Shown: positions 4,004 through 28,315 of the stretch, in pieces
Numbering within the stretch: position 1 is the first letter of the stretch
How the letters are laid out: the number at the start of each line of letters is the position of its first letter
Source: an uncultured Gammaproteobacteria bacterium
GTDB taxonomy: Bacteria; Patescibacteriota; Patescibacteriia; SG8-24
Direction: 5' to 3'
Assembly: GCA_964626205.1 (NCBI GenBank)
Contig: CAZVED010000001.1
Coordinates: 961 to 64,960, forward strand
Length of the DNA: 64,000 bases
Made by a program: the position numbers and the translations under genes
The notes under the pieces: generated by a model
The model's input: only the letters and a program-made list of their open reading frames with translations
Databases searched by the model: none
What the model was told of the DNA's origin: nothing

Positions 4004-5143
4004 ATGCCGTTTTTCGGGAAGAAGACCGATCATAACGCCCTCATTTCTCCGCTCTTGCTGAGCGTGGTATTCGGGCTTGCTGCCGGCGGTGTCGGGACGT
4101 TGCTTGTTACCGCGTCGTTGCCGAATCCTGAGCCCATGCTCTCCATCGTCCGCCCTGTGTACCGCATTCCGGGAGCATCCGGTGACACGATGGCCCCGGA
4201 GCAGGCCACCGCAGCGAATCCGTCAGCGCTCGTTTTCCGGGCGAAAGACGGCGCGTCGATCGTCGAGCGCGCGTACGTTCCGGCGCAGGCGCTCGGCTCG
4301 GCGATGTTACTCACCTCCGACGGATGGCTAGTGTCCACGGATGCGGTCTTCACTGCCGCCGTCCGTTCGGCACTTCCGTCATATCGCGTCGTTTTCGATC
4401 ACGTCGCGTATGCCGTCACCGATGCTGTGGTCGACCCGTTCACCGGCATCGTTTTTCTCAAGATTGACGGACGGAACCTTCCGGTCACCGCGTTTCGCGG
4501 CGGTCTTGATTTGCAGGCGGGGAGCGCTGTGTTCGGATTTGATGTCGGTGGCAGTCCGCGCAAGTTCGATGTCGTAGGATACGATGCCGTTCCTGCCGCG
4601 TCGTCAGCGGAACTCGTTCGAAGTTCGGAGCGCTTGCAGCGTTTGCTCCGCTTGTCCGGTTCTGGCGGAGCTGTTCCGTCGGGATCCGTCGTCGTGGACG
4701 CGTCCGGTGAGGCGGTGGCAATTTTCTTGCACGATGACGCGTTCGGCTCCGTCGCTGTTCCTTTCGCAGTGTTCAGCGGGCAAATCGGTTCGGTGTTGCG
4801 GGGCCAGAAGACGCATCGTCCGTATCTCGGCGTGAAGTACGTCGATCTTTCCCGTACGCTTGGTGCGGCAACCGTTGGCATGCGGCCGCGTGGTGCGCTC
4901 GTGACGGCTGGCACCGACGGTTCGTTGGCTGTGCAGCGCAGGAGTCCAGCGGACGACGCAGGTATTCTCGCGGGCGACCGTATCCTTGCGGTGAATGGGG
5001 AGGAGCTCGGAGCGCGGACGGCATTGGCCGATCTCATCGCGGAGTATGCGCCCGGAAGCGTCCTGACGCTGACGGTGCGTCGCGGACCTGACGCAACGCC
5101 GACCGATCTCGCCATCCAAGTGACGCTTGGCGTGGCGCCATGA
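4004..5143 (+). CDS. HtrA-like PDZ-domain protein (trypsin-like fold, probably catalytically degenerate), N-terminal TM
   Basis: C-terminal PDZ motif (GMRPRGALVTAG...DAGILAGDRILAVNGEEL); upstream region aligns by eye to the HtrA protease core (LSGSGGAV vs GNSGGPL) but the His and Asp positions read A and G. Confidence 0.55.
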   Translation: MPFFGKKTDHNALISPLLLSVVFGLAAGGVGTLLVTASLPNPEPMLSIVRPVYRIPGASGDTMAPEQATAANPSALVFRAKDGASIVERAYVPAQALGSAMLLTSDGWLVSTDAVFTAAVRSALPSYRVVFDHVAYAVTDAVVDPFTGIVFLKIDGRNLPVTAFRGGLDLQAGSAVFGFDVGGSPRKFDVVGYDAVPAASSAELVRSSERLQRLLRLSGSGGAVPSGSVVVDASGEAVAIFLHDDAFGSVAVPFAVFSGQIGSVLRGQKTHRPYLGVKYVDLSRTLGAATVGMRPRGALVTAGTDGSLAVQRRSPADDAGILAGDRILAVNGEELGARTALADLIAEYAPGSVLTLTVRRGPDATPTDLAIQVTLGVAP

Positions 5144-5206
5144 TTGACAGAGACCGTTTTTCGTGCTATCATCCGCAGTCATCAATGATTTCCTGAACGA
5201 CATCGT

Positions 5207-5851
5207 ATGCAAGAAGCCCAATACGTCGGCATGCTCCTGCTCGGATGGAAGCGCATCCTCGCTTTCGCTATCGTTTCCGCGCTCGTTGGCGGCGCGTTGA
5301 GCTTCCTGTTCCCGCTGCAGTACAGCTCCACGACACGTCTGCTCATCATTCAGCGCCAACTTTCGGGAGCGGATCCGTATACCGCCATCAAGGCGTCGGA
5401 GCGCATTTCGGACAACCTTTCCCAGGCCATCTATACGACCTCGTTCTTCGACAAGGTTCTTGAGACGGACTTCGACATCGACCGCACGGTATTCAAGGCT
5501 GACGAGCATAAGCGCCGCAAGCAGTGGGCGCAGATGATCGGTACGCAGGTCATGCGCGGGTCCGGCATGATCGTGCTCACCGTGTATCATGTCGACAAGG
5601 AGCAGGCCACGCAGATTGCGCGCGCCGTTGCGTATGTGCTCACGACCGAGGGGTGGCAGTATGTCGGCGGGGGAGACCTCGAGGTAAAGATCGTCGATCA
5701 GCCACTCCAGTCCCGCTTCCCGGTGAAGCCGAACATTCCGGCGAACGTGCTCATGGGCTTCGCACTCGGTCTCATTGCCGGTTCCGGGTATGTGCTTATG
5801 ACGAGTCAAAAGAAGGGGTTGTTCGGCATTCCGACACGCGAGACCTTTTAA
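5207..5851 (+). CDS. Wzz/chain-length-determinant-like membrane protein
   Basis: N-terminal LLGWKRILAFAIVSALVGGALSFLF TM with a Wzz-type start; second TM near the C-terminus (GFALGLIAGSGYVLM); soluble domain between. Confidence 0.45.
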   Translation: MQEAQYVGMLLLGWKRILAFAIVSALVGGALSFLFPLQYSSTTRLLIIQRQLSGADPYTAIKASERISDNLSQAIYTTSFFDKVLETDFDIDRTVFKADEHKRRKQWAQMIGTQVMRGSGMIVLTVYHVDKEQATQIARAVAYVLTTEGWQYVGGGDLEVKIVDQPLQSRFPVKPNIPANVLMGFALGLIAGSGYVLMTSQKKGLFGIPTRETF

Positions 5852-5880
5852 GCTCAGTCGAGCTCAAATAAGGAAGAAAT

Positions 5881-5908
5881 AAGCTCAGCCACATCGGCTG
5901 AGCTTATT
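5881..5908 (+). terminator. rho-independent terminator
   Basis: AAGCTCAGCC-acatc-GGCTGAGCTTATTCT hairpin after the stop at 5851. Confidence 0.5.
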
Positions 5909-5922
5909 CTGTACCAGCTTTT

Positions 5923-6020
5923 TGTCATTGCGAGTGGGACTGTACTCAGTCCCCGAAGCAATCTTTATTCATGAGGGGAGGGATTGCTTCGGGGTCGAGT
6001 ACGACCCACTCGCAATGACA
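5923..6020. repeat. family-B palindromic element (two inverted arms GTCATTGCGAG..CCGAAGCAATC around a 17-bp core)
   Basis: TGTCATTGCGAGTGGG...CCCCGAAGCAATC / GGATTGCTTCGGGG...CCCACTCGCAATGACA; same arm sequence at 18662, 19031, 19162, 21097 and 21286. Confidence 0.7.
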
Positions 6021-6032
6021 AGTTGAGTGGGT

Positions 6033-6090
6033 TAAGCTCAGAAGCTTGTCCGGCAGTATTGACAAAACCGTGTGTTCATGCTATAGTCGC
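6033..6090 (+). promoter_or_regulatory. sigma-70-type promoter module (TTGACA-17-TATAGT) with conserved upstream box TAAGCTCAGAAGCTTGTCCGGCAGT
   Basis: TTGACA at 6059-6064, 17-nt spacer, TATAGT at 6082-6087; the whole roughly 55-bp module is duplicated at 7656-7713. Confidence 0.5.
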
Positions 6091-6287
6091 AAGTTCATTG
6101 AAGCACGGAAACCGTCTGGTGAACCGCGATGTCGCCTCCTCCTAGTCGTCGCGGACTCATCAGCCGGTTTCCGGTGCTGCAAGGCATCGGTGGTGTTTTC
6201 ATCGGTTCGAGGATAGTCCTCGGCCGACCATGATGTGATTTGCCCGGACGGGCTTTGTTTGCCCGATGAGGGCGGAGGGTACTGAAC

Positions 6288-7478
6288 ATGAAGACGAACG
6301 TGTTGGTCCTGGTGGTTTCCTGCGTGCTCATGGCGATTGCCGCTCCCGCGATGGCGGACGAGCAAGCGCCTGTCGCGACAAGTCTCGCCGCGGAGTTCAC
6401 TCCCGAGCAGATCCGCAAGATCTGTCGGGACAATGGCTACGCCGTACGTATCGGCAACGCGCATCTCGAAGGTGGCGAAGCGGGATTCCCCGCAGCGCGC
6501 CCCGAGAACATGACGCCGGCTGCGACGGCCACGGCAACTGCGACCGTTTCGACGGGAGCAGAGAACTGCGGCGAGTGCTGCGATCGGCTGCAAAGCCAGA
6601 TCAACGCGCTCAAGGATGGTCTCGCGCGCTTCCGTGGGGAACGCGAGCGTCTCGAACGCCGTGTCATGCTGCTCGAGCGTAATCCGCGCCATGCGGATGC
6701 AGCGGCCTCCGTCCGCGTCGACCTCTCGGAAGTGAATGCTGCGCAAGCCGCATTCGTCGCCGAGGTGAACGCGCGTCTCGAGAGCGAGTTCGGTCGCATC
6801 AACGAGCGGTTCGCACGCGTGAAGCGCGTGAACGCTCGGCAGGATAGCGAGCTGCAGGCCTTGCGGGACGTCAATTCCCGTCAGGAGATCGCAATCGGCG
6901 TCATTGCCGATAACGATCACGTGCAGGACGCGCTCCTCGATGCGCAACACGACGTCGACCAGATGCAGAACGAGGAGATCTCGGATCTGCGCCGCGAACG
7001 AAAGTACGCGGAAGTCGGACTGAACGTCGGTGTCCTGACCCTCGCGGGCTGGGATTACACCAACGTGTCCGGCATGGTCGGCGGTCAGCTCGCGCTTCGT
7101 GTGGGCGGACGGTGGTACCTCATGGGTGCTCCGTCGCTGCTCATCACGGGCGGCAACCGTCCGTTCGGTGCCACGTTCCAACTCGGAGTCGGCTACGACC
7201 TCGTGGAGGACCGCGACAACAACGGCATCGTGGATTCGTCCTATGCCGCGGCGTCCGTCGAGTTCGGTGGCATGCTGACCTCCACGCTGATGAACAATCA
7301 GCTGGAAGGGAAGTACGTGACCGTCGAACCGACAGTCGGACTCGTGGTCCGGTTCGGGAACGGCTTCCGCGCTGGCGGGTACGTGCACGGCGGTCCTCGG
7401 ACCGATGTGAACGGCAACCTCGCTGCGACGATCGGAGGTATCCTGAACCTCGGCTACGACTTCGGCTCTCGTCACTGA
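6288..7478 (+). CDS. secreted coiled-coil protein with C-terminal Gly-rich beta domain
   Basis: signal peptide MKTNVLVLVVSCVLMAIAAPAMA; central heptad-like region (ERLERRVMLLERN..., NARLESEFGRINERFARVKRVNARQDSELQALRD); C-terminal Gly/aromatic-rich beta-like region; strong promoter upstream and terminator downstream. Confidence 0.6.
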   Translation: MKTNVLVLVVSCVLMAIAAPAMADEQAPVATSLAAEFTPEQIRKICRDNGYAVRIGNAHLEGGEAGFPAARPENMTPAATATATATVSTGAENCGECCDRLQSQINALKDGLARFRGERERLERRVMLLERNPRHADAAASVRVDLSEVNAAQAAFVAEVNARLESEFGRINERFARVKRVNARQDSELQALRDVNSRQEIAIGVIADNDHVQDALLDAQHDVDQMQNEEISDLRRERKYAEVGLNVGVLTLAGWDYTNVSGMVGGQLALRVGGRWYLMGAPSLLITGGNRPFGATFQLGVGYDLVEDRDNNGIVDSSYAAASVEFGGMLTSTLMNNQLEGKYVTVEPTVGLVVRFGNGFRAGGYVHGGPRTDVNGNLAATIGGILNLGYDFGSRH

Positions 7479-7520
7479 GAGCCGACGGAGGGGCGGTAAG
7501 CCCCTCCACACACTTCTTCC

Positions 7521-7553
7521 GGCAGCCTCTTCGTGAGGCTGCCGTTTGATTTT
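7521..7553 (+). terminator. rho-independent terminator
   Basis: GGCAGCCTC-ttcg-tGAGGCTGCC followed by GTTTGATTTT. Confidence 0.6.
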
Positions 7554-7633
7554 AAGCTGGATGCGGGTACCAAAATAAGGCGAAAACGAGGAATAAGCGG
7601 GAGGAAATAGGCTGGATGCGGGTACCAGCTTAA
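7552..7633 (-). repeat. family-A REP/BIME-like element (copy 1, reverse orientation)
   Basis: TTAAGCTGGATGCGGGTACC ... GGAAATAGGCTGGATGCGGGTACCAGCTTAA; reverse complement of the copies at 16551, 26753 and 28189. Confidence 0.8.
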
Positions 7634-7655
7634 ATATCTAAGCGAGCTTATCTTT

Positions 7656-7713
7656 TAAGCTCAAAAGTCTGTCTGGCAGTCTTGACAAACACCACGATTT
7701 ATGCTATAGTCAT
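7656..7713 (+). promoter_or_regulatory. sigma-70-type promoter module (TTGACA-17-TATAGT) with conserved upstream box, paralogue of 6033-6090
   Basis: TAAGCTCAAAAGTCTGTCTGGCAGTCTTGACA at 7656-7688, 17-nt spacer, TATAGT at 7705-7710. Confidence 0.5.
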
Positions 7714-7850
7714 CCGTTCAGTGAGAGGCCCTTGTCGGGAGTCTCGCAGAACACGAAGTGTGGTCTTTCCAAGTGAATCTCACGATGTCGGCCACGGTGG
7801 TCGATGTCTCAGGTTTTGATGCCTTCGGGCTTTTGCAACGGGAGATAGCA

Positions 7851-9023
7851 ATGAACAAGCACTGGGTGATTCTGGGTTTCTTGGTTCTCGGTCTCTCCGC
7901 CTGTGTCGAAGACACGGGTGGTAAGGACGGCATGAACGGCATCGACGGCATGAACGGCGACGCCGGCCCGCAAGGCGAGCCTGGCGAAGACGGCACGAAC
8001 GGCCGCGACGGCACCGACGGTGAAGACGGTCAGAACGGCACGGACGGTACCAACGGTACCGACGGTGTCGATGGTCAGGACGGGCGTGACGGCGAAGACG
8101 GCACGGATGGTACCGACGGTACCGACGGTCGCGACGGCACGGACGGTCAGGACGGCCGCGACGGAACGACGACCATCGTCATCTGTGGTGATCACGAATG
8201 TGACACGCAGAACGGCGAGAACGTCAGCAACTGCGCCATCGACTGCGCTTCGACTCCGGCTCCGTTCTGCGGCGACAACAGCTGCAACAACGGTGAGACG
8301 CACGCGACCTGCTCTGCAGATTGCGATGCGCCTCCGGTCGACCCTCAGGCACCCTACTGCGGCGACGCGTCGTGTAACAACGGCGAGACGCCCAGCAGCT
8401 GCCCGGACGACTGCGGCACCTGCGGTGATGGAAGCTGCAACAACGGCGAAGATCACCTCCTGTGCCCGGACGACTGCGAAGCGCCCGTGGTGACCGAGAC
8501 GTACGCTGGCCCGTTCAAGATGTATCGTGAGCGCCTGACGGACGGTTCGTACCTCTGCTCGATCGGGGTCAACCCGAACTACGCGAGCGGCGCAGCCAAC
8601 AACCAGATCGTCGGAGAAGGCGCAAGCTTCCTCTCGAACTGGGAGTCGGGCTCATCGAGCCAGATCCTGGCCTACCAGAACGGCGGCATCGAGTCGGACG
8701 GATACGTTCGCTTCGAGCTTCCGCGCGATAGCCAGCCAATCGGCACGTCCACGATTCGCTTCTCGTACCGTGGCTGGAATCCCCAGTCGCACAAGTACGA
8801 GTACGCGCAGTACGGCGACGCGGACACGCAGCTCGCGCGCATGACGGACGAGAGCCTCTCGATGGTGTACTGCTTCCAGTACGACCCGTCGAAGTCCTCG
8901 TACGGCTGCTCGGGTCGCATGACCTACGAGGTGTTCGCCAACCCGAACACCAACAAGAAGGACTGTCGGCTGACCGCAGCCGGTAACGCCCAAGTTGCCA
9001 ACGACCTCGTCGTCAGCAACTGA
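7851..9023 (+). CDS. collagen-like triple-helix-repeat lipoprotein with three Cys-rich repeats and a C-terminal globular domain
   Basis: lipobox LVLGLSAC; about 29 uninterrupted G-X-Y triplets (GKDGMNGIDGMNGDAGPQGEPGEDG...GRDG); three repeats CGD(N/A/G)SCNNGE(T/D)H..C..DC; start placed at ATG 7851, preferred over the ORF-track start 7758. Confidence 0.7.
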   Translation: MNKHWVILGFLVLGLSACVEDTGGKDGMNGIDGMNGDAGPQGEPGEDGTNGRDGTDGEDGQNGTDGTNGTDGVDGQDGRDGEDGTDGTDGTDGRDGTDGQDGRDGTTTIVICGDHECDTQNGENVSNCAIDCASTPAPFCGDNSCNNGETHATCSADCDAPPVDPQAPYCGDASCNNGETPSSCPDDCGTCGDGSCNNGEDHLLCPDDCEAPVVTETYAGPFKMYRERLTDGSYLCSIGVNPNYASGAANNQIVGEGASFLSNWESGSSSQILAYQNGGIESDGYVRFELPRDSQPIGTSTIRFSYRGWNPQSHKYEYAQYGDADTQLARMTDESLSMVYCFQYDPSKSSYGCSGRMTYEVFANPNTNKKDCRLTAAGNAQVANDLVVSN

Positions 9024-9034
9024 TCCTTCCTCTC

Positions 9035-9080
9035 GGACCGCCTCCCAGCGCTTGCTGGTGATGGCGGTCCTTTTCTTTTC
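9035..9080 (+). terminator. putative rho-independent terminator
   Basis: GGACCGCC...GGCGGTCC stem with a long structured loop, followed by TTTTCTTTTCT. Confidence 0.45.
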
Positions 9081-9162
9081 TCGCGCGCTCGCAAGGGTGC
9101 GCTTTTTGATAGGGGAGACGACCGTGTGCCAGCCACCCTTAAATGAGGTACACTATCCGTAT

Positions 9163-10719
9163 ATGCTGCATATCGTACGGAGAATTGAAGCGCATCTTGG
9201 CATCGCTCCTGTGGAGACCGAGCGGGAGCAACGCCGTCGTTTCTTGAAGATCGTGCTCGGCACGGCGCTGGCCGTCGGTTTGCTCGTCATTGCGCTCTCG
9301 CCCTGGAAGGCGCTGGCGCTCGTCGTGGGCCTCATTTTCGCCGGGTTCGCGGTTGCAAAGCCGGAGCTCGTCATTTTGTTCCTTGTCGCATACACACCGT
9401 TCGAACCATTCCTTCTCAAGTTCGTTCCGGACGACATCTACCTCTTTGCGCGGTACTTCTCCGAGGGGCTCATTTACCTCTTGCTCGTCGTGGTTGGCAT
9501 TCTCGTTGCGCGGCGCAAGCGTAAGATCGTTCCCACGCCGCTCGACCTGCCGTTCGTTTTCCTGCTCATTGTGGCGATGACGTCGCTTGTCGTGAATGTC
9601 GTGCCTCCGTTTATTGGTCTTCTCGGGTTGCGTCAGGTCATTAGGTTCATGCTCTTGTTCTTCCTGACGGTGTATCTCGCTCCAGACAACGATTTCGTAA
9701 AAACGGTCACGAAGGTGATGTTCGCCATCGTGTTGTTCCAAGGCTTGCTCGGCATCACGCAGTCCGCCGTCGGCGGGCGCTTGGACGAGTTCCTTATTCC
9801 GAGCGAGCGTCGGTTCTTCGAGAGCATTCAGCTCACGAGCGGTACGGAGCAGTTCTGGTCGCCGGGCACGCGCGTCTTCGCGACTATGGGGCGCTATGAC
9901 CAGCTTGGCACATTCCTCGCGTTCTTCCTTCTTGTCGCAATCGGTCTTTGGTATCACGAAAAAGACCGTTCGAAGAAGCGAATGCTGCTCTGGCTCGTCC
10001 TGCTCTGCGCGCCAGGGCTCGTCATGACGCTTTCGCGCGCGTCATGGTTCGGGTTCCTTCTCGGGTTCCTGGTTATTGCGGCATGGTTGCGGGAGGACTG
10101 GCGCGTGCGCGCCGGCCTCGCCATCTGCGCGGCTGCGGCGATTCTCTATGTTACGTTCACGGGTCTTACAGTGAAGTACCTCACGGACTATGCCGGACAG
10201 ACGCCGGTCGAACGTTTGTTTGAAGCGTTCTCGTATGAGCGATGGCGCGGGGAATACCTCGGCCTCGGTCGCCTGTACTGGATCGTACAGACGCCGACGG
10301 TCGTCGTCCCGTCCTCACCGCTCTTTGGTGTCGGTCCCGGTCAGTATGGCGGGGGAGCGGCAGCCGCGCTCGGCAATTCTCGTGTGTACGAGAAGCTCGG
10401 TCTTCCATTCGGTGTGTACGGAACTGAGGGATACATCGACAACAACTGGTTCGCGGTTTGGGGCGAGCTCGGCACGCTCGGTCTCGCATTCTACATTTGG
10501 ATGGTCACGGCGCTTGGGCGTGTCGCGTATGACGCATGGCGGAACGGACGCGATACATGGACGAGGGGACTCGCACTCGGGTATCTCGGTGCGCTCGTTG
10601 CAGTGAGCTTCCAGGCTTTCCTCGGGACGTATCTCGAAGTGCGCACACTCGCCATCTACCTTTGGCTGTATGGGGCGTTCGTCCTCGTGCTGGCACGTCG
10701 TGATCGGCGTATCGCTTAA
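9163..10719 (+). CDS. O-antigen ligase/polymerase-family (Wzy_C-like) polytopic membrane protein
   Basis: more than 10 TM helices; LSRASWFGFLLGFLV and the C-terminal TEGYIDNNWFAVWGELGTLGL loop are typical of the O-antigen ligase family; start chosen at MLHIVRR (the ORF-track ORF extends to 8995). Confidence 0.6.
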   Translation: MLHIVRRIEAHLGIAPVETEREQRRRFLKIVLGTALAVGLLVIALSPWKALALVVGLIFAGFAVAKPELVILFLVAYTPFEPFLLKFVPDDIYLFARYFSEGLIYLLLVVVGILVARRKRKIVPTPLDLPFVFLLIVAMTSLVVNVVPPFIGLLGLRQVIRFMLLFFLTVYLAPDNDFVKTVTKVMFAIVLFQGLLGITQSAVGGRLDEFLIPSERRFFESIQLTSGTEQFWSPGTRVFATMGRYDQLGTFLAFFLLVAIGLWYHEKDRSKKRMLLWLVLLCAPGLVMTLSRASWFGFLLGFLVIAAWLREDWRVRAGLAICAAAAILYVTFTGLTVKYLTDYAGQTPVERLFEAFSYERWRGEYLGLGRLYWIVQTPTVVVPSSPLFGVGPGQYGGGAAAALGNSRVYEKLGLPFGVYGTEGYIDNNWFAVWGELGTLGLAFYIWMVTALGRVAYDAWRNGRDTWTRGLALGYLGALVAVSFQAFLGTYLEVRTLAIYLWLYGAFVLVLARRDRRIA

Positions 10720-10730
10720 CCCGTCGTTCT

Positions 10731-12011
10731 ATGCGTGTCATCATGGCGAACAAGTATTGGTACCTGAAGGGTGGCGCCGAACGCTACCTCTTCGACCTGT
10801 CCGCGACGCTCGAGGAACACGGACATCAGGTGTTGCCGTTCGCAATGCGAAGCGCGAAGAATCTCCCGACGCCGTGGGCAAAGCGTTTCGTGAGCGAAGT
10901 CATGACAGAGAAGGTCTCGTTCGGCTGGCGAGGTCTTCGTACTGCCGGGCGCATGCTGTACTCCTTGGAGGCTCGTCGGAAGTTCGCTGCGCTCGCAGAG
11001 GAGACGCATCCGGACGTCCTCCATGTACACAACATCTATCATCAGATTGGGCCGAGCTTCCTACCGTTGGCTCGTGCTGCAGGAATCCCCGTGGTGCTCA
11101 CTGCGCATGACTACGCGCTCGTCTCGCCGGACTACAGCCTGTTCCATCATGGACGCATCGATGAACCGAAAACGCCCGGCGATGTTTCTGGCATGATCAT
11201 GCGTCGCGCGGTGAAGGATTCCGTAGTCGCGACCGCGCTCGCCGTTGCTGCATGGAAGCTGCATGACGCGCTCCGTCTCTATACCGACAACGTGAACCGC
11301 ATCATCGCGCCAAGCGCGTTCATGAAGGCAATGCTTGTCCGCCACGGTATTTCGGAGGACCGTATCGCGCATGTCCCACATCCGATCGATACGCGTGCAT
11401 GGACGCCGTCAGATGCTGCTACAGGCACCTACGCGCTGTACGTCGGGCGCCTCGTGGAAGAGAAGGGTGTCGAGACGCTTATCCGCGCTGCCGCGAAGGT
11501 GCCAGGGATTCCGGTACGCATCGTTGGCACCGGTCCGGATGAAGCGAGGCTCAAAGCGCTTGCAAAGGAGCTCGGTACCACGAACGTGCGTTTCGATGGC
11601 TTCCAAGAAGGTGCTGCGCTCAAGGCGTTGTATGCCGGTGCGCGATTCATCGTTGTGCCGTCGTTGTGGTACGAGGTGTTCGGTCTCATCGTCCTTGAAG
11701 CGTACGCGGCGGGAATCCCCGTGGTCGCTTCGCAGATCGGTGCGCTTGGCGAGTTGGTGCAAGATGGCGAGACGGGCGTGCTCGTCTCAGCGGGAGATAC
11801 GGACGACCTTGCGGAACAGATGTCCGATCTTTGGGCACATCCGGACACGTGCGGAGCCATGGGTCGCGCGGGTCGTGCGTGGGTAGAAAAAGACTTCACG
11901 CCGGCGATGCATTACGACCGCATCGTTGAGGTGTACAACGACGCCGCTCGCGATCGCGCAGAAGAAGGCCGCGTATCGGTTCCCGATGACACAACGACAC
12001 TGACGGAATAA
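10731..12011 (+). CDS. glycosyltransferase family 4 (GT-B fold)
   Basis: N-terminal GT4 donor-domain motifs and the C-terminal EVFGLIVLEAYAAGIPVVASQIGALGELVQDGETGVL (E-x7-E region). Confidence 0.7.
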   Translation: MRVIMANKYWYLKGGAERYLFDLSATLEEHGHQVLPFAMRSAKNLPTPWAKRFVSEVMTEKVSFGWRGLRTAGRMLYSLEARRKFAALAEETHPDVLHVHNIYHQIGPSFLPLARAAGIPVVLTAHDYALVSPDYSLFHHGRIDEPKTPGDVSGMIMRRAVKDSVVATALAVAAWKLHDALRLYTDNVNRIIAPSAFMKAMLVRHGISEDRIAHVPHPIDTRAWTPSDAATGTYALYVGRLVEEKGVETLIRAAAKVPGIPVRIVGTGPDEARLKALAKELGTTNVRFDGFQEGAALKALYAGARFIVVPSLWYEVFGLIVLEAYAAGIPVVASQIGALGELVQDGETGVLVSAGDTDDLAEQMSDLWAHPDTCGAMGRAGRAWVEKDFTPAMHYDRIVEVYNDAARDRAEEGRVSVPDDTTTLTE

Positions 12012-12020
12012 TAGGGAAAC

Positions 12021-12050
12021 AAAAAACGGCACCTCAAGGGGTGTCGTTTT
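12021..12050. terminator. bidirectional rho-independent terminator
   Basis: AAAAAACGGCACC-tcaa-GGGGTGtCGTTTT between convergent genes. Confidence 0.6.
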
Positions 12051-12058
12051 ACGATAAG

Positions 12059-12241
12059 CTACTTTGTACTTCGTCGTTGCGGGGCGTTGAGGAGCGAGCT
12101 GATGCAGAACGTGAGGCTTGCGGCGAGCAGGCCCATGATGAAGCCGGTGATCGGATGCCAGCCGAAGATGATGGTGCCGCCGAAGAAGTTCCCGATGAAT
12201 ATTCCGAGCGCCAGACCAACGTTAGACATTGAGGTCTCCAT
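12059..12241 (-). CDS. small two-TM membrane protein (possibly GlsB/YeaQ/YmgE-like)
   Basis: 60-aa ORF METSMSNVGLALGIFIGNFFGGTIIFGWHPITGFIMGLLAASLTFCI...; Gly-zipper-rich helices; start at the internal Met of the 86-aa ORF. Confidence 0.35.
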   Translation of the reverse strand: METSMSNVGLALGIFIGNFFGGTIIFGWHPITGFIMGLLAASLTFCISSLLNAPQRRSTK

Positions 12242-12433
12242 GGTAGGAATACGAGGAGTTTTGTATAACGGACGCTTATTGTCAAGATATCCGGCATCCG
12301 GTTCGTGGCTGGGATGCATGGATGGTGGTGGTGGGTGGCGGAGTGCCTCGTCACTTACTGCCCACGTATTCCTGGCTCGGCAGAACCAAAAGACCGGCCC
12401 CCGTCAGGGAGTCGGTCTTGTCGCTGGTGCGGG

Positions 12434-13585
12434 TTATGCGTTGGCGGTTGCCGCGGTCGCTTCCTCATTGAGGAGGTGGACGTAGAGCGTTTCGACTTCG
12501 GCGACGATGTCGTTCCAGTGGTAGTCGCGGAGGACGAACTCGCGTGCAGCCGCCCCCTTTTCTGCGGCGAACTCGGGGTTCGCGAGGAGGTGACGGAGTT
12601 TGCGGGCGAGGTCCTTCACGCTACCACTCGTGAACGCGAGGCCGTGCTGGCGGGTGACTTCCATGATTTCCGGGATGTCGGAAGCAAGGACGGCTTTGCC
12701 GTAGCTCATCGCTTCGAGTACTGCGATCGGCAGACCCTCGGATTCCGAAGGGTGCACGATGGCGTACGCGTTGGCGAAGAGCTGGTGCAACCGCTCGCCG
12801 TTCTGGTAGCCAGTGAAGACGATGTCCGGATGATCGCCGGCGAGCTTCTTGCACTCCGCGACGTAGTCGTCCGTGAAGGCGGTGTCGCCGACGATGACGA
12901 GCTTCTTGCCGTGGGTCGCGCTCATGGCGTGGAGCTGCTGGTAGGCGTCAATGAGGTAGTGAGCGCCCTTGTGCCGCACGAGGCGGGACACCATGGCGAT
13001 GTACTTTCCTTTCTCCAGGCCAAAGTCGGCAAGGAGGTCATCGTTCGCTTCTTCCGGTGCGCTGATGCCGTTGGGGATGTAGCGCGCGTTCATGGAGAAG
13101 CTGTTGTTGCAGTAGGACTGCAGCGTGCGCGAGACCGCGATGGTCTCGTGCGCGAAGGTGCATGCGGCGCGCTCGCCGAGGCTGAGCGCGAGGCGCGCGA
13201 CGAAGCCCCACTTCTGGTGGTGGCGGTCGATACAGTGGAAGGTCGTCACAACCTTGATGCGCGGCGCGAAAACGCGCGGAATCCATGAGAGGAGGGAAGG
13301 GCCGACACCGTGGTAATGGATGATGTCGACGCCGTCCATGATGGCGCGGATGGTGGAGGTAAACGTGTGCACAATCGCATCGAGGTGCTTGGTGGCGATG
13401 GTGGGGGTGACGACGACACGCACGCCTGGAGCGAACTCCGTGCGCGCAGGTGCGTACCAGCCGCGAGCGAAGGCGGTGACGGTGTGGCCGGCAGCGCCAA
13501 GACGGACGGCAAGTGCTTCCACGTGTCGTTCGATGCCGCCGAAGCGGGTCGGGATACCTTTTTGGCCAATCATGGCGATATGCAT
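12434..13585 (-). CDS. glycosyltransferase family 4
   Basis: MHIAMIGQKGIPTRFGGIERHVEALAVRL (GT4 N-terminus) and ESEGLPIAVLEAMSYGKAVLASDIPEIMEV. Confidence 0.7.
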   Translation of the reverse strand: MHIAMIGQKGIPTRFGGIERHVEALAVRLGAAGHTVTAFARGWYAPARTEFAPGVRVVVTPTIATKHLDAIVHTFTSTIRAIMDGVDIIHYHGVGPSLLSWIPRVFAPRIKVVTTFHCIDRHHQKWGFVARLALSLGERAACTFAHETIAVSRTLQSYCNNSFSMNARYIPNGISAPEEANDDLLADFGLEKGKYIAMVSRLVRHKGAHYLIDAYQQLHAMSATHGKKLVIVGDTAFTDDYVAECKKLAGDHPDIVFTGYQNGERLHQLFANAYAIVHPSESEGLPIAVLEAMSYGKAVLASDIPEIMEVTRQHGLAFTSGSVKDLARKLRHLLANPEFAAEKGAAAREFVLRDYHWNDIVAEVETLYVHLLNEEATAATANA

Positions 13586-13687
13586 ACAGTCGATGTTTTT
13601 CGCTTATTTCAGCGATGAAACGGTATCTAGGGAACATCGGACTATAGCATAAAAACCACCCTTTGTCAAGGGTGGCGGGGAAACGAT

Positions 13688-13762
13688 TTAAGCTGGACAC
13701 GGGTACCGAAATAGGGCGGAAATGAAGAATGGGCGGGAGGAAATAGGCTGGATGCGGGTACA
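13688..13762 (+). repeat. family-A REP/BIME-like element (copy 2, left flank of RAYT)
   Basis: TTAAGCTGGACACGGGTACC-gaaatagggcggaaatgaagaatgggcgggaggaaata-GGCTGGATGCGGGTAC. Confidence 0.8.
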
Positions 13763-14370: not shown

Positions 14371-14452
14371 ATAGGCTGGATGCGGGTACCAGCCTATTTC
14401 CTCCCGCCTATTCTTCATTTCCGCCCTATTTCGGTACCCGTGTCCAGCTTAA
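14371..14452 (-). repeat. family-A REP/BIME-like element (copy 3, right flank of RAYT)
   Basis: GGCTGGATGCGGGTACCAGCC-tatttcctcccgcctattcttcatttccgccctatttc-GGTACCCGTGTCCAGCTTAA; contains the stop codon of the convergent gene 14449..16521. Confidence 0.8.
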
Positions 14453-16521
14453 TTTGGAACCACCACCGACCGAGCGTCATCGTAGTCGAACGGAAGCCGT
14501 GTCGTGACGTCACCGATATGGTGCGTAACTCGGGTTCCCGTCGCGACGTCCGTGCCGGTCACAGAGATGCCGGTAAGCAGCGCGGGGAGGGTGCCGATGT
14601 CGGTGTCGGTCGGGGTGAACGCCAGCTCGAAGCTTGCGCCAGGAGAACTTGCGCGTTCCTGCGTGAACGCGGAAACCGCAGGGATCTTCCAGGTCACGCG
14701 TCGCGTAGACGGGAAGTAGTCGAGCGCCTCGCCTTGCGTGACGCTGAACCGTCCGGTCCACTCCGTACCCGGTGCAAGGAACGCTTCCACGACCGCGTCC
14801 TCGATGACATGTTGCGCGTTGTCGAGTTGGAGGACGATGCGATAGCGCGTCGTTTCGTTAACGGTCGGTGGCAGCGGACCGCGGCCAATCTGGTCGCCGC
14901 TGCGCGTGTAGTAGATGCCCGCGGCTTGCAGGCGGAGCTCTGTCGCGACCGGCACATCGACGGTCGGAGTGTCGATGACGACTTGTTCGCCTCCAGCGGC
15001 TTCTTCGTGTACGGCGGTAAGCAGCGCGGAGAATGCCGCAGATGCTGTTTCTGTGCCGAGCGCGTCCATGACAGACGGCGTAATTTCGCGACGCACGGTG
15101 AGTGTTGTCGTGACTGAGATGGTGTCACCGGGTGCGATGCTGGCGAGCGATGGCGTGTCTTCTGCGGTCCAGGTGAGGATCGGAGTAGCATCGCCATCCA
15201 TGACAAAGAGGCTGTCGGTCACGGAAAGCTGAATAACGCCGTTCGTAAAGGTGCGATCGCCATCGTTGCGCGCGTTGAGGTGCACGGTGACAGTGTCGCC
15301 TGGGCGAAGGAATCGCGTTTCTGCGCTTCCAAGGTCCTGCGTGAGCGTGAGGCCGGAGGAGAGCGAGTTCGCATTCACGCGCGTCGTTGAGGCAGTCACG
15401 GCTGTTCGTGCAGATGCGTTGGCGACGAGGTCGGCAGCGAACGACGTGGACGATGCTTGTCCCGGTGTCGCGCGGAGATAACCGTAGACGACAATCGTCC
15501 CGCGCGCATCCGAAGCAAGGTCGCCTAAGCGCCACAAGCCGGAGCTCGTCGCACGAGGTGCGCTTCCGGTGGTCACGAAGTCCGCTGGGGGCGTGAAGCG
15601 TACTGCCGCGTCGGGGACGGCGCGGTTGGAGGTGTTGGCGTAGGAGAGCGTGACGGCGGTCGTTGCTCCGCGGAGGATGGTTTCCGGAACGGAGATGTCG
15701 ACGCCGACTGCGGAAGAACCGATGGGGAGGCGAATGTGGAACGGAGTAACGACGGGTTCTGTGCTCCCTTCAGTCCAATAGGAGATAGATGCCGGGATCT
15801 CCACGACTGAGCCGATAGGGCCGTAGGGGACGCCAGTCAGGGTTGCGCCACGCTTTGCGCCAGGCATGAGCGGCGGAAGCGGAACGGCGATGGAGGTCGC
15901 AGCGACCGCTGGAGGGACGCAGGAGCGAAGCTCGGTTTCGCTTAGTGCGCCGCCGTGCAGGGAAATGCCTGCATGCGCCATGGACGGCGGGAGATCGACG
16001 GTGAGGATAGTGCAAGGGAGTGCCACGGTAGTAGAGAAGTTCGTGTAATCGATGGTCGCGACCGAGGATTCGCCGCTCACGGATGCCACGGGAGCGTGGA
16101 CCGTGACGGTGAGCACGTTCGGGTTCGCGCTCGGCAGGAAATACGGCGAATAGACGCCGGCGACGATAAGTGCGGCGATGACGACAGCGAGCACGAGGTC
16201 GATAGCGACGAGCTTGTGTGCGTGCTTCGGGTACTTTGCCTTGTACTTCCGTTCCCAGTGCCCCTTGAGCGGCTCGTAGCAGATTTTATGGATGGGATCC
16301 GAGACGAGGACAGCATGCTTATGCGCATGTTTATGCATGCTCGCGAGCGGCGGATAGCAGACACGCTTTACCGGATCCATGAGCTCGCCTGCCTTGTCGC
16401 GCAAAAGGCTCAGTGTCTCAATGGCCGCGCTCATGCCTTTCGCCATAGGCGAAGCTGCCGCGGCGCGGAGCTTTTCCTCGTCGGTCATCACCTTCGGTTG
16501 TTTTGGAGTCTTTGCTTTCAT
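14449..16521 (-). CDS. membrane-anchored surface protein with tandem beta-sandwich (DUF11/Ig-like) repeats; Cys/His-rich cytoplasmic N-terminus
   Basis: cytoplasmic N-terminus with paired motifs RVCYPPLASMHKHAHKH / KICYEPLKGHWERKYKAKYPKHAHK; one TM (LVAIDLVLAVVIAALIVAGV); about 570-aa extracellular Thr/Val/Ser-rich repetitive beta region. Confidence 0.6.
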   Translation of the reverse strand: MKAKTPKQPKVMTDEEKLRAAAASPMAKGMSAAIETLSLLRDKAGELMDPVKRVCYPPLASMHKHAHKHAVLVSDPIHKICYEPLKGHWERKYKAKYPKHAHKLVAIDLVLAVVIAALIVAGVYSPYFLPSANPNVLTVTVHAPVASVSGESSVATIDYTNFSTTVALPCTILTVDLPPSMAHAGISLHGGALSETELRSCVPPAVAATSIAVPLPPLMPGAKRGATLTGVPYGPIGSVVEIPASISYWTEGSTEPVVTPFHIRLPIGSSAVGVDISVPETILRGATTAVTLSYANTSNRAVPDAAVRFTPPADFVTTGSAPRATSSGLWRLGDLASDARGTIVVYGYLRATPGQASSTSFAADLVANASARTAVTASTTRVNANSLSSGLTLTQDLGSAETRFLRPGDTVTVHLNARNDGDRTFTNGVIQLSVTDSLFVMDGDATPILTWTAEDTPSLASIAPGDTISVTTTLTVRREITPSVMDALGTETASAAFSALLTAVHEEAAGGEQVVIDTPTVDVPVATELRLQAAGIYYTRSGDQIGRGPLPPTVNETTRYRIVLQLDNAQHVIEDAVVEAFLAPGTEWTGRFSVTQGEALDYFPSTRRVTWKIPAVSAFTQERASSPGASFELAFTPTDTDIGTLPALLTGISVTGTDVATGTRVTHHIGDVTTRLPFDYDDARSVVVPN

Positions 16522-16550
16522 ATATATGCCGATAGTGTAGCAGAGTGCAT

Positions 16551-16632
16551 TTAAGCTGGTACCCGCATCCAGCCTATTTCCTCCCGCCTATTCTTCATTT
16601 CCGCCTTATTCCGGTACCCGTGTCCAGCTTAA
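16551..16632 (+). repeat. family-A REP/BIME-like element (copy 4)
   Basis: TTAAGCTGGTACCCGCATCCAGCC-tatttcctcccgcctattcttcatttccgccttattcc-GGTACCCGTGTCCAGCTTAA between two minus-strand genes. Confidence 0.8.
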
Positions 16633-16636
16633 ACCG

Positions 16637-18670
16637 TCACTGCCCAACGGACGAGAGCGTGAAGACGTCCGTGGTAAGCGTCACGACTTCGTCTTTTCCG
16701 TCGCCGTCGATGTCTGCCGAGGAGACGCGCACGCCAGTCCGACTTCGTGCGTCTCCGGCAAAGAAGCCGAGGCTGAGTGCGCGTCCGTACTTGTCGAAGA
16801 CGCGCACGTGCGGACCGCCGCCCGGCCCAGCTCCCGTGACGATTTCGTCTTTACCATCGCCGTCCAGGTCGCCGGCTGCCACATGGACGCCGCCGCGGAA
16901 GGCCGGGTCGTAGGCGAAGAAACCAGGATTGAGGAGCCGCCCGTTCTTGTCGAAGATGCGCACGTGCGGACCGCCGCCAACACCAGCACCGGCAATAATC
17001 TCGTGCGCGCCATTGCCGTCGATATCGCCCAGGGCGATGTTGACGCCGCCACGGAAGCGGGGGTCGTAGGCGAAGAAGCCGGGGTTGATGAGCACGCCAT
17101 CCATATTAAAGACGCGGATCTGCGGGCCGGCACCAGAGCCGGTACCGGTGACGATTTCCATCTTACCGTCGCCCTCAAGATCGCCGACCGCGAAGTTGAT
17201 GCCGAGGCGATAGTTTTCGCCGTACGGCTTGAAGGACGTCTTGAGCCGGCCGTCTGCCCAGTAGATGCGAATCTCCGAGTTCGTCGCAACGACCTTCTCG
17301 AGTGTCCCGGAGACGCCGTCGATATCCGTCACGACCACGTTCGTACCACCGTCAAACGGACCTTCATAGGCAAAGAAGCCGTTTCGGACTTGTGCGCCAG
17401 CCCCGGAATAGACGCGCGCAAAGGCGCCGTTCACGAACGTTCCGCCGACAATGCGCTCTACCGGGCGGGTGAGGACGATGCCGTCGAGGCCGGAGAGCGT
17501 CACCGAGGTGACGATGCTGCCGTCGTTGACGCGCGGGTCTTGTGTGCCGCTGAGCTTTTCCATTTCGATGCCGAGGTCGACGGTTTGCGCACGGTCCGTG
17601 GAGTTCACAAGAACGGTCCCGTTCGTGAAGTCGCGTCGGTACACGCCGCGCTGGAGGTTCCGAGCGTTGGGGGAGAGGAGGTTCACCGGGCCCGAGAGCG
17701 GACGTCCGAGATGGACGCTGTACTCATCGTAGTGCCAGAGCTGGCCGTGGTTCTGGTCGCCGAAGTCGTAGCTGAAGAAGCCTTGGCCGAGGAGTGCGGT
17801 CGTGAGCGTGTAGCGGACATTCGCGTAGTCGGCGTTATTGCCGGAGTTGGACGTATTGCCGTTCACGACGAAGACCGGCGTGTAGCCCACACGATCGTGG
17901 AGGTCGAGGTAGTTTTGCGTGACACCCTCCCACGTACCGCCCGCTTCCCACGGGGTAGGGTAGGTTTCGAACATGCGTCCGTTCACGTGTGGCTGGAGCT
18001 CGCCGGTGGAATCGCCGTTCGTCACGATGACGGCGCTCGCACCCAAAAGGTCGCGGGTGTTCTTGAGCAGGTTCACGGTCGCGCGCTTCCATGCCGTGTC
18101 CGCGAGGTGCGCGTCCGTCCGTGCGCCGGAGCGGTGGATGTCGATGTTGCCGCCGTTCACCCAAGAGATGTTCGCGGAGAGCTCATCGTAGAAGACACCG
18201 TCCCAGAGTCCGGTCGCCATGATCTCGTCTTTCACGAACTGCGGGAGGACGGTCTGCCAGCTCCCGACGGTGTTGATGACCGTCGTTCCCGGCCAGACGG
18301 AGACTGCGCGACCGGACGGGTCGCGGAGCCACATGTCGTCGGTGATGTGCGTGCGGAGTTTCTGGTGGAGCGGATCGACCCAGATGCTGTTCCATGACTT
18401 CGATGGGACGTAGGCGAGGATGAGGACGTTCGGATTCAGGCGGCGGAGTTCGTCGAACATCGCACGGTTGTACACCTGCGCTTCAGCCGGGAAGATGAGG
18501 AGGTCGTAGCGCGCGAGCTGCGGGTAGAGCGCCGGGGTGATGTCCGTTCCAGCACGGAGATAGTAGTTCGCCGTCCGCACGAACTTGTCGTCCGGCGTTT
18601 TGATGGCGGCATCTGCCGACTGTGCGCCGAAGAGCCCCATCGCGATGAGGGGGGCCATGAGCAGTGTCAT
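16637..18670 (-). CDS. secreted glycoside-hydrolase-like (TIM-barrel GHL-type) protein with C-terminal FG-GAP/beta-propeller repeats
   Basis: signal peptide MTLLMAPLIAMGLFGAQSADA; N-terminal roughly 400-aa domain resembling glycoside-hydrolase-like families; four C-terminal repeats FRGGV..A.GD.DGDG..EIVTGAG.GGGPHVR.F; the ORF-track start 18730 lies inside a family-B repeat, so start set at M21 (alternative 18658). Confidence 0.6.
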   Translation of the reverse strand: MTLLMAPLIAMGLFGAQSADAAIKTPDDKFVRTANYYLRAGTDITPALYPQLARYDLLIFPAEAQVYNRAMFDELRRLNPNVLILAYVPSKSWNSIWVDPLHQKLRTHITDDMWLRDPSGRAVSVWPGTTVINTVGSWQTVLPQFVKDEIMATGLWDGVFYDELSANISWVNGGNIDIHRSGARTDAHLADTAWKRATVNLLKNTRDLLGASAVIVTNGDSTGELQPHVNGRMFETYPTPWEAGGTWEGVTQNYLDLHDRVGYTPVFVVNGNTSNSGNNADYANVRYTLTTALLGQGFFSYDFGDQNHGQLWHYDEYSVHLGRPLSGPVNLLSPNARNLQRGVYRRDFTNGTVLVNSTDRAQTVDLGIEMEKLSGTQDPRVNDGSIVTSVTLSGLDGIVLTRPVERIVGGTFVNGAFARVYSGAGAQVRNGFFAYEGPFDGGTNVVVTDIDGVSGTLEKVVATNSEIRIYWADGRLKTSFKPYGENYRLGINFAVGDLEGDGKMEIVTGTGSGAGPQIRVFNMDGVLINPGFFAYDPRFRGGVNIALGDIDGNGAHEIIAGAGVGGGPHVRIFDKNGRLLNPGFFAYDPAFRGGVHVAAGDLDGDGKDEIVTGAGPGGGPHVRVFDKYGRALSLGFFAGDARSRTGVRVSSADIDGDGKDEVVTLTTDVFTLSSVGQ

Positions 18671-18716
18671 TGCGAGGGTCGACGTACTCGTCGGCCCGAA
18701 GCAATCCCGTTGTGGC
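18662..18716 (+). repeat. family-B palindromic arm (single arm)
   Basis: GTCATTGCGAGGGTCGACGTACTCGTCGGCCCGAAGCAATCCCGTTGTGG overlapping the 5' end of gene 16637..18670. Confidence 0.65.
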
Positions 18717-18726
18717 ATGGTGCGCG

Positions 18727-19020
18727 TCATACAGCTTCCTTTTCACGCTCTCGCTCCAACGCCTTCGGGTTGGGGGAGTAGAGTCGGTTCTTGATCTTCC
18801 ACTGGCTCACGAACTGACCGATACCATCCTTGGCGACCTTGGTGCGGACCTTGGGGCGTTCTTGTGACCAGCGCACGAGGCTCTCGAAATTGATCTTGTA
18901 CCGACCGCGCACGACGACGTACGTCAAAGCGCCGTCCGCGATGGCGCGGCGGACGGTCTTGGTGGAAACACCGAAGAGCCTCGATGCTTCAGAGACGGAG
19001 ACACGGATGAGTGAGGACAT
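18727..19020 (-). CDS. small helix-turn-helix DNA-binding protein (excisionase/MerR-like)
   Basis: 97 aa; N-terminal VSEASRLFGVSTKTVRRAIADGAL HTH; flanked by family-B arms at 18662 and 19031. Confidence 0.5.
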   Translation of the reverse strand: MSSLIRVSVSEASRLFGVSTKTVRRAIADGALTYVVVRGRYKINFESLVRWSQERPKVRTKVAKDGIGQFVSQWKIKNRLYSPNPKALEREREKEAV

Positions 19021-26752: not shown

Positions 26753-26832
26753 TTAAGCTGGTACCCGTGTCCAGCCTATTTCCTCCCGCTTATTTCTCGT
26801 TTCCGCCTTATTTCGGTACCCGCATCCAGCTT
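26753..26832 (+). repeat. family-A REP/BIME-like element (copy 5)
   Basis: TTAAGCTGGTACCCGTGTCCAGCC-tatttcctcccgcttatttctcgtttccgccttatttc-GGTACCCGCATCCAGCTTT. Confidence 0.8.
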
Positions 26833-26891
26833 TAGTGGTTGCCATACTGAGCGTTTTTCGGCATGCTGGAGGTCATATAACCCCACGTCGT

Positions 26892-28188: not shown

Positions 28189-28270
28189 TTAAGCTGGTAC
28201 CCGTGTCCAGCCTATTTCCTCCCGCCCATTTCTCGCTTCCGCCTTATTTCGGTACCCGCATCCAGCTTAA
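28189..28270 (+). repeat. family-A REP/BIME-like element (copy 6)
   Basis: TTAAGCTGGTACCCGTGTCCAGCC-tatttcctcccgcccatttctcgcttccgccttatttc-GGTACCCGCATCCAGCTTAA. Confidence 0.8.
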
Positions 28271-28315
28271 AACCGTGGTATACTGCATGAACGATTCAGT
28301 GTTTTTGTCGTACCC

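Follow-up and report, generated by a model that had tools for sequence, protein, structure and literature searches.

A candidate lipid-anchored collagen-like surface protein with cysteine repeats and an orphan head domain in a patescibacterial envelope-glycan locus

The 64-kb window analysed here (64,000 nucleotides of contig CAZVED010000001.1, assembly GCA_964626205.1) carries at positions 7851–9023, on the forward strand, a gene for a collagen-like lipoprotein that is a candidate for a projecting surface fibre. The coding sequence starts at ATG 7851, ends with the open reading frame (ORF) at 9023 and specifies 390 amino acids plus a stop codon; besides its translation, it is supported by a self match (P0001) and by an orthologue, P0002. 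The mature protein would have a mass of ~39 kDa and an isoelectric point of ~4.05. Residues 1–18 (MNKHWVILGFLVLGLSAC; 7851–7904, forward strand) read as a type II signal peptide that ends in the lipobox L15-S16-A17-C18, with Cys18 (codon 7902–7904) as the predicted lipidated N-terminus. The bacterial lipoprotein pattern [LVI][ASTVI][GAS]C is present both in the window protein (MNKHWVILGFLVLG-LSAC) and in the orthologue (LVGC). Behind the lipobox, on the same strand, lie a collagen-like region of 28 Gly-X-Y triplets (residues 24–107, 7920–8171), a region of four Cys repeats (residues 108–209, 8172–8477), and a C-terminal head domain of 181 amino acids (residues 210–390, 8478–9020). A preliminary description of this DNA had recognised the ORF, its LSAC lipobox and the order of lipobox, collagen run, Cys repeats and globular C-terminus, all of which are borne out, the order being the same in P0002; its C-terminal domain of ~250 amino acids was an overestimate.

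The NCBI model of the protein, P0001, is 412 amino acids long and begins at ATG 7785. At the orthologous locus (L001) this upstream ATG is one base out of frame, whereas ATG 7851, its Shine–Dalgarno (SD) site and the signal peptide are kept; we therefore take 7851 to be the true start. The GC content at third codon positions (GC3) of the gene is 0.81, similar to that of neighbouring genes, and thus gives no sign of recent acquisition. A long antisense ORF (7809–8456, reverse strand) overlaps the repeat.

The stalk is an unbroken run of Gly-X-Y triplets, for which ~29 uninterrupted triplets had been counted beforehand; the continuity stands and the number is 28. It scores 54.4 bits against the Pfam Collagen model (PF01391, cut-off 27.2), which places this unbroken run above the gathering threshold of that family, and PHROG profiles of collagen-like phage tail fibres match the same 84 residues. 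Elsewhere in the six frames of the window there is no G-X-Y run of at least six triplets. The triplets are mostly G-T-D and G-x-D: position X is occupied by Thr (10), Glu (4), Arg (4), Gln (3), Met (2) and others, and position Y by Asp in 19 and Asn in 5 of the 28 triplets, so that the stalk holds 24 acidic and 5 basic residues; a TTT tail adds to the ten Thr in X. At the DNA level the stalk consists of degenerate tandem repeats of 9, 18, 36 and 45 nucleotides. Given the rise of 0.286 nm per residue in a collagen triple helix, its 84 residues would span ~24 nm. A search with the full-length protein gave 1988 matches, among which only the protein itself and P0002 matched over the full length, the remainder covering at most 39% of the query and only its collagen run. 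The G-x-[DN] style of the run is shared with ~2000 Pfam-Collagen-positive proteins, and several of these have a lipobox as well.

P0002 (379 amino acids, E = 2.7e-137), from a metagenome of the Joint Genome Institute (JGI), was the single orthologue in a search of ~5.8 billion protein clusters, or one among ~15 billion proteins, and is 59–67% identical to the window protein. It comprises the LVGC lipobox, 20 unbroken triplets, five Cys repeats and the head, with identities of 65% in the stalk, 65% in the Cys region and 72% in the head. Insertions and deletions between the two proteins are limited to whole triplets, a length polymorphism in triplet number, and to one whole Cys repeat. A frameshifted repeat artefact, named in the preliminary description as what might undo the finding, is ruled out by this independent metagenome, whose protein has its own unbroken triplets and Cys repeats. 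In these two diverged orthologues Gly occupies every third residue without a break, over 28 and 20 triplets, while the triplets themselves and their number differ, which speaks for structural constraint on the spacing of Gly.

Turning to the Cys region, four repeats of the pattern C-x4-C-x8(10)-C-x3-C follow a conserved hydrophobic linker, (T/V)IVI. Repeat 1 (CGDHECDTQNGENVSNCAIDC; residues 112–132, 8184–8246) is divergent, and is followed by repeat 2 (CGDNSCNNGETHATCSADC; 8268–8324), repeat 3 (CGDASCNNGETPSSCPDDC; 8358–8414) and repeat 4 (CGDGSCNNGEDHLLCPDDC; 8421–8477), all on the forward strand. Three repeats had been noticed before, and these three are real; the divergent first copy had been missed, and in place of the regular ~30-residue units then described we find cores of 19–21 residues joined by linkers of 7, 11 and 2 residues. 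The region contains no Lys or Arg and 19 Asp plus Glu. Thirteen aligned units from the window protein, P0002 and a further protein, P0121, give the consensus xCGDGxCxNGETxxxCPxDCG, with no variation in any of the four Cys, in the central Glu or in the Asp that precedes the final Cys. Against Pfam and NCBIfam at E ≤ 10 the region had no meaningful match (zf-TRAF_2 at 16 bits with a cut-off of 27, RET_CRD at E = 7.2), and a profile of the repeat found nothing below E = 1.7 among PDB sequences. No match links the region to the EGF, anaphylatoxin, DUF4215, Stig1, MopE-like or zinc-finger families. No family models the repeat in Pfam across 74 carrier proteins or in NCBIfam across nine carriers, and a literature search for the Cys motif strings produced no relevant report. 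The idea that the repeats might be an intracellular metal-binding family does not hold, as the Pfam and NCBIfam searches are negative and the carriers are secreted.

The repeat, which can be summarised as YCGDGsCNxGEtxxxCPxDCG, occurs at no fewer than 291 metagenome loci (at least 291, found with two narrow peptide patterns), with 2–71 copies per protein and the maximum of 71 in L084. In 55 carriers the N-terminus is complete; it is hydrophobic and signal-peptide-like in 50 of them, and a lipobox-like motif occurs in 13. Their partner domains are heterogeneous and extracellular (NPCBM_assoc, CarboxypepD_reg, CAP, Peptidase_C25, CHAP). Most metagenomic units (588 of 663) have the modal length of 22 residues and the same consensus, most often with one extra Cys. 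A word-indexed search with the Cys region returned only P0121. We read the repeat as a predicted extracytoplasmic spacer module, presumably disulfide-bonded. A genuine collagen run was found in none of 80 other Cys-repeat proteins sampled, the longest G-x-x runs being 8–12 Gly-rich triplets in three proteins. The combination of collagen stalk and Cys repeats is thus as unusual as had been suspected: the two do not occur together in any of the 80 sampled carriers, and no collagen match beyond the orthologue covers more than 39% of the query.

These unnamed environmental proteins (P0121, L083, L105, L120; L084) are the nearest relatives of the Cys region. They share an identical 19-residue core, C-x4-C-x8-C-x3-C, in which Gly follows the first Cys, Glu stands in the middle and Asp precedes the last Cys; they are secreted or carry a lipobox, and their repeats are usually in tandem, as stalk or spacer. 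Unlike the window protein, most environmental copies have one or two extra Cys (a six-Cys version), and none of the 80 sampled proteins has a long collagen run or this head. DUF4215/TIGR02232 of Myxococcus and NF033662 likewise describe small, acidic extracellular Cys repeats that start with CGNG or CGDG. Their Cys spacing and length differ, and the window protein does not match them at E ≤ 10; both co-occur with the present repeat in L105, L141, L154 and L136, and DUF4215 matches 3 of the 74 carriers through separate repeats in those proteins. As a side observation, the repeat is abundant in environmental secreted proteins (loci L083–L162, for example L084, L105, L141 and L154), often with an extra Cys pair, and sometimes stands in tandem with Myxococcus-type DUF4215 or acidic double-disulfide repeats.

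Conservation is highest in the head, which is 72% identical to that of P0002; its four Cys are invariant and its C-terminus reads ...ANDLVVSN. HMMER searches with the head against 1.84 billion representatives returned only P0002 and P0122 (E = 2.4e-4). The latter was rejected as a relative: BLAST pointed to its 125-residue tandem repeat, hhalign gave a probability of 2.4%, and that repeat has no relative in the PDB. The head had no significant match in Pfam (E ≤ 10), PHROG or PDB sequences, and scans of GTDB genomes, JGI metagenomes and IMG/VR revealed no relative; a word-indexed search that used only the head as query came back empty and missed even the protein itself, which is a limit of that tool. 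Matches of the head profile to the F–G strand region of antibody light-chain variable domains in the PDB (E ~0.03–0.5) were set aside as too weak, a mere hint of a beta-sandwich. AlphaFold2 (AF2) monomer models are beta-rich and of low confidence (mean predicted local distance difference test, pLDDT, 40.7 for residues 108–390; pLDDT 48.5 and predicted template modelling score 0.44 for the head alone), and a Foldseek search with these low-confidence models gave no match. We describe the head as an orphan domain, predicted to be beta-rich. A distant jelly-roll head of the C1q/TNF type is conceivable, given a poor AF2 model and no sequence match in Pfam or the PDB.

The gene is preceded by a promoter region at 7655–7710 (forward strand) that agrees with the consensus at 11 of 12 positions: a –35 element TTGACA at 7682–7687, a 17-nucleotide spacer with TG at 7702–7703, and a –10 element TATAGT at 7705–7710. 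The near-consensus promoter proposed earlier (at 7656–7713) is therefore real, lies at 7682–7710, and is conserved in L001, where –35, –10 and flanks are kept. Its upstream part is a 35-nucleotide cassette (TTAAGCTCAnAAGnnTGTCnGGCAGTnTTGACAAA; 7655–7689), which has just two copies in the window, the other at 6032–6066 ahead of the gene at 6288–7478. From the position of the –10 element we place a 5' leader of ~135 nucleotides at 7717–7850 (forward strand). The leader is conserved with L001 and contains an element, CGATGTCGGCCACGGTGGTCGATGTC, that is at once a conserved 11-bp hairpin and a direct repeat; the SD site GGGAG (7840–7844) lies 6 nucleotides 5' of ATG 7851. The fold energy of the leader is no better than that of shuffled sequences (z = –0.47), the leader has no Rfam match, and Rfam and tRNA scans of the whole window were empty. 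Downstream, an intrinsic-terminator-like hairpin (9083–9110, forward strand) has an 8-bp stem with six GC pairs followed by the T-run TTTTTGATAG, the terminator being placed at 9083–9102, and an upstream terminator at 7520–7544 ends the preceding gene. With its own promoter, SD site and terminator behind that upstream terminator, the gene forms a self-contained transcription unit, predicted to be monocistronic and to have a strong promoter.

Four sigma-70 promoters in this part of the window come close to the consensus and have an extended –10 (TTGACA-17-TG-TATxxT). They lie at 5144–5172, 6059–6087 and 7682–7710 on the forward strand and at 13669–13641 on the reverse strand, and each precedes one envelope gene. 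A promoter scan of 5000–12500 yielded five sites where 1.9 were expected; the site at 13669–13641 was picked up when the entire window was searched by pattern. The genes behind the four promoters appear to be individually and strongly transcribed rather than to form one operon.

The gene sits, judging by the annotation of its neighbours, in a cell-envelope glycan locus. A Wzz-like chain-length protein is encoded at 5207–5851, and is followed by a gene at 6288–7478 (forward strand; promoter cassette 6032–6087) for a secreted protein of 396 amino acids, whose middle is a coiled coil with RVNARQD-type repeats and whose C-terminal half is Gly-rich and of beta type. The presence of the 35-nucleotide cassette ahead of this gene and the collagen-like gene only suggests co-regulation of the two secreted proteins, and the 396-residue protein may be a functional partner of the collagen-like protein. 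It had no match in Pfam, NCBIfam, PHROG or PDB sequences, and is 48% identical to a syntenic protein of 392 amino acids in L001. Downstream of the collagen-like gene lies a gene (9163–10719, forward strand) for a polytopic membrane protein of 518 amino acids of the Wzy_C family (Pfam E = 3.8e-9), the superfamily of O-antigen ligases, polymerases and O-oligosaccharyltransferases (OTases); its ORF extends up to TTG 8995, and alignment with the syntenic L001 gene, 79% identical, supports a start at ATG 9163. PglL_A (PF15864) was not detected in this protein at E ≤ 0.001 and NCBIfam matches were weak, far below cut-off, so that it is not assigned to PglL. The PglL_A model derives from enzymes of Gram-negative bacteria (PMC3643930), so that a protein without this signature may still be an OTase. 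A family 4 glycosyltransferase (GT4) gene follows at 10731–12011, with more GT4 and family 2 (GT2) genes and RmlB, RmlD and RmlA further along. In L001 the order is the 392-residue protein, the collagen-like gene, an inserted IS200-type Y1_Tnp, Wzy_C, and a 420-residue gene cut by the contig end.

The organism was placed through PyrG (56598–58232), which is 74–83% identical to proteins of metagenome-assembled genomes of Patescibacteria, Parcubacteria and Uhrbacteria. Two window proteins carry DUF5667, which we take to be typical of the Candidate Phyla Radiation (CPR), and the GC content of the window is 60.7%; together these features indicate a high-GC patescibacterium as host. Members of the CPR/Patescibacteria are mostly uncultured, ultra-small and thought to live attached to other microbes. 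To our knowledge, few patescibacterial surface structures beyond type IV pili are known, and a literature search for collagen-like proteins in Patescibacteria or CPR returned nothing relevant.

By architecture, the closest known systems are BclA of the Bacillus anthracis exosporium and C1q with the collectins, which likewise combine N-terminal attachment, a collagen-like stalk and a C-terminal head. As in BclA and C1q, the triplet number is variable, and the head would nucleate the trimer and carry binding specificity. The bclA gene lies near rhamnose and glycosyltransferase genes, and the Thr-rich, Pro-poor stalk gene described here has the same surroundings. The differences are considerable: a lipobox lipid anchor takes the place of the exosporium-targeting N-terminal domain of BclA, Thr in X with Asp in Y replaces GPT triplets, four Cys modules stand between stalk and head, and the head has no sequence similarity to any Pfam family, BclA- and C1q-type heads included. 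Scl1/Scl2, Lcl and the Pasteuria protein Pcl also present a globular domain on a collagen-like rod and show triplet-number polymorphism. The Scl models NF038330 and NF038329 scored 39.8 bits (cut-off 400) and 57.1 bits (cut-off 325), on residues 22–107 only, and the Legionella Lcl model NF046116 scored 33 bits against a cut-off of 500, on the G-X-Y run only. The window protein has no LPXTG, and Scl proteins have the opposite polarity, with an N-terminal head and a C-terminal anchor; in comparison with Scl, Lcl and Pcl the composition is different and the head unrelated. By these family models and domain comparisons, the protein is not assigned to the Scl, Lcl or BclA families. By ecology the closest case is Pasteuria, an obligate parasite for which Pcl7 has been proposed as host-attachment adhesin (PMC10987987); a role of this type in an episymbiotic CPR cell would be a plausible analogy.

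We propose that the gene encodes a lipid-anchored extracytoplasmic lipoprotein that acts as a projecting surface fibre, probably trimeric and acidic, with a lineage-specific head. The chances of this reading seem to us about evenly balanced, and we regard it as a reasonable hypothesis. The chain would be exported by Sec, its signal peptide cleaved and Cys18 lipidated, as the lipobox suggests, and would stay tethered at the outer face of the cytoplasmic membrane. Its C-terminal part, consisting of four presumably disulfide-bonded Cys mini-modules and the 181-residue head, predicted to be beta-rich, would fold first and bring three chains into register. The 28-triplet segment could then close up, starting at its C-terminal end, to form an acidic triple helix of the collagen type, ~24 nm long. 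Collagen triple helices are known to nucleate at the C-terminal end and then to grow towards the N-terminus (PMC11923368), as would suit a protein whose Cys modules and head lie C-terminal to the stalk. The Cys modules would lengthen and stiffen the stalk, giving a fibre of ~24 nm or more, and the head at its tip might bind to a host cell surface, to a particle, to the envelope glycan of the cell itself or to some other ligand. With so little Pro and so much Thr and Asp in the stalk, the helix probably depends on additional stabilisation; low ambient temperature, divalent cations and O-glycosylation of Thr by the glycan locus, singly or combined, are candidates.

Several observations weigh against this proposal. 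The composition of the stalk appears unfavourable for a triple helix, with Asp and Asn in Y, Thr in X and 2 Pro only; the host–guest rules of Persikov et al. from 2000 reportedly count Asp or Asn in Y, and likewise Thr in X, as rather poor formers of a triple helix. The net charge of ~–19 per chain should cause strong repulsion within a trimer, and the stalk has no KGE or KGD triplets, Lys-Gly-Glu/Asp triplets being those whose salt bridges stabilise the triple helix (PMC11923368). Thr-containing triplets are, for their part, over-represented in prokaryotic collagens (PMC11923368). Searches of Pfam, PDB sequences and folds recognised no known trimerisation fold in the Cys region or the head, and the AF2 monomer models, with the pLDDT values of 40.7 and 48.5 given above, are of low confidence. 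That the head and Cys modules drive trimerisation is proposed purely by analogy, and host adhesion would be a plausible function in a lineage of episymbionts.

The same composition suggests the main alternative, in which the protein is a monomeric lipoprotein whose G-x-D/G-T-D run is an extended polyanionic, possibly cation-binding tether, holding the Cys modules and head on a flexible linker. A run with 19 Asp and 5 Asn in 28 Y positions, 2 Pro, no KGE or KGD, and 24 acidic against 5 basic residues would suit such a tether, and the low-confidence models without a recognisable trimerisation domain agree with it. A flexible acidic linker, however, needs no Gly at every third residue, yet neither orthologue breaks the pattern anywhere in its 28 or 20 triplets; the same G-x-[DN] style recurs in the ~2000 Pfam-Collagen-positive proteins, and the region is strongly matched by the collagen and tail-fibre profiles of Pfam and PHROG. 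We consider a tether of this kind possible, if unlikely. The PHROG matches, along with the antisense ORF at 7809–8456, could also be taken to indicate a phage or prophage tail-fibre gene, or a spurious ORF of a GC-rich repeat. That explanation is effectively refuted: the PHROG matches do not extend beyond the G-X-Y run and the other 283 residues match no phage family, the head has no relative in the IMG/VR scan, the neighbours are chromosomal envelope genes and GC3 is native, while the forward frame is conserved as protein in P0002 (lipobox, all Cys and head) and is equipped with promoter, SD site and terminator.

The glycan locus allows a further interpretation that overlaps with the surface-fibre proposal, namely that the protein is an envelope glycoprotein or accessory of glycan assembly, either as the acceptor of the Wzy_C enzyme acting as a PglL/WsaB-like OTase or as a structural partner of Wzz/Wzy. 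The Thr-rich stalk would then carry a rhamnose-containing glycan that also stabilises the helix. In keeping with this, the order of partner gene, collagen-like gene, Wzy_C and GT4 is kept in two genomes despite the IS200/Y1_Tnp insertion in one of them, the locus encodes Wzz-like, GT4, GT2 and RmlA/B/D proteins, and the stalk offers ten Thr in X and the TTT tail. Adjacency inside a large envelope locus is nevertheless weak evidence, and with no PglL_A at E ≤ 0.001 and NCBIfam scores far below cut-off an ordinary polymerase or ligase is equally possible. In BclA-type collagen, moreover, the glycosylated Thr occupies the Y position, not X. PglL-type OTase genes do often adjoin their target genes (PMC3643930), and Thr glycosylation can make Pro-poor peptides triple-helical and so stabilise such helices, according to a passage of PMC11923368 that cites Bann et al. 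2000 and BclA. On balance we think a glycoprotein role of this kind rather improbable. A more far-reaching version, which we offer as speculation with little likelihood of being right in full, would join the collagen-like lipoprotein, its co-regulated partner and Wzy_C into an undescribed patescibacterial envelope appendage, an acidic collagen fibre, glycosylated and stabilised by cations, that attaches the ultra-small episymbiont to its host cell through the orphan, lineage-specific head; the Cys repeat would then be a new, widespread disulfide stalk domain of extracellular proteins that domain databases lack.

Bacterial collagen-like surface proteins are a known kind, and what is under-described here is the orphan head and the widespread, unmodelled Cys repeat. 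The protein, a conserved putative fibre whose gene has a strong promoter and whose tip is specific to its lineage, is a testable candidate for host attachment or envelope organisation, and its Pro-poor G-T-D/G-x-D stalk is a test case for helix stabilisation by charge, cations or Thr glycosylation in place of hydroxyproline. If the stalk is not helical, the finding amounts to one more orphan lipoprotein. The 19–22-residue CGDGxCNxGE..C..DC repeat, common in environmental secreted proteins and with no Pfam or NCBIfam model, merits definition as a domain.

Beyond this locus, the annotation suggests that the genome stretch is rich in uncharacterised envelope proteins. Several large secreted proteins that join FG-GAP repeats to a GHL15 glycosyl-hydrolase-like domain or to an S8 subtilase are encoded at 14449–18730 (reverse strand) and 32330–34345 (forward strand), and at least eight large ORFs (~330–1140 amino acids) at 21.5–31.2, 35.1–37.3 and 41.3–47.3 kb have no family match at E ≤ 1e-5. 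The window also contains an intergenic repeat element of ~85 nucleotides (TTTAAGCTGGATGCGGGTACCGAAATAAGGCGGAAACGAGGAATAGGCGGGAGGAAATAGGCTGGATGCGGGTACCAGCTTAAA) with 10-nucleotide terminal inverted repeats and an internal 17-nucleotide direct repeat. Copies lie at 7548–7635 (forward strand) and at ~26755–26840, ~28190–28275 and ~16550–16625 (reverse strand), with partial copies near 13747 and 14375, and its 17-mer has nine matches in the window where none would be expected by chance. The copy at 7548–7635, just upstream of the collagen-like gene promoter, is missing from the orthologous locus, which suggests a mobile element resembling a miniature inverted-repeat transposable element (MITE) or a repetitive extragenic palindromic (REP) sequence.

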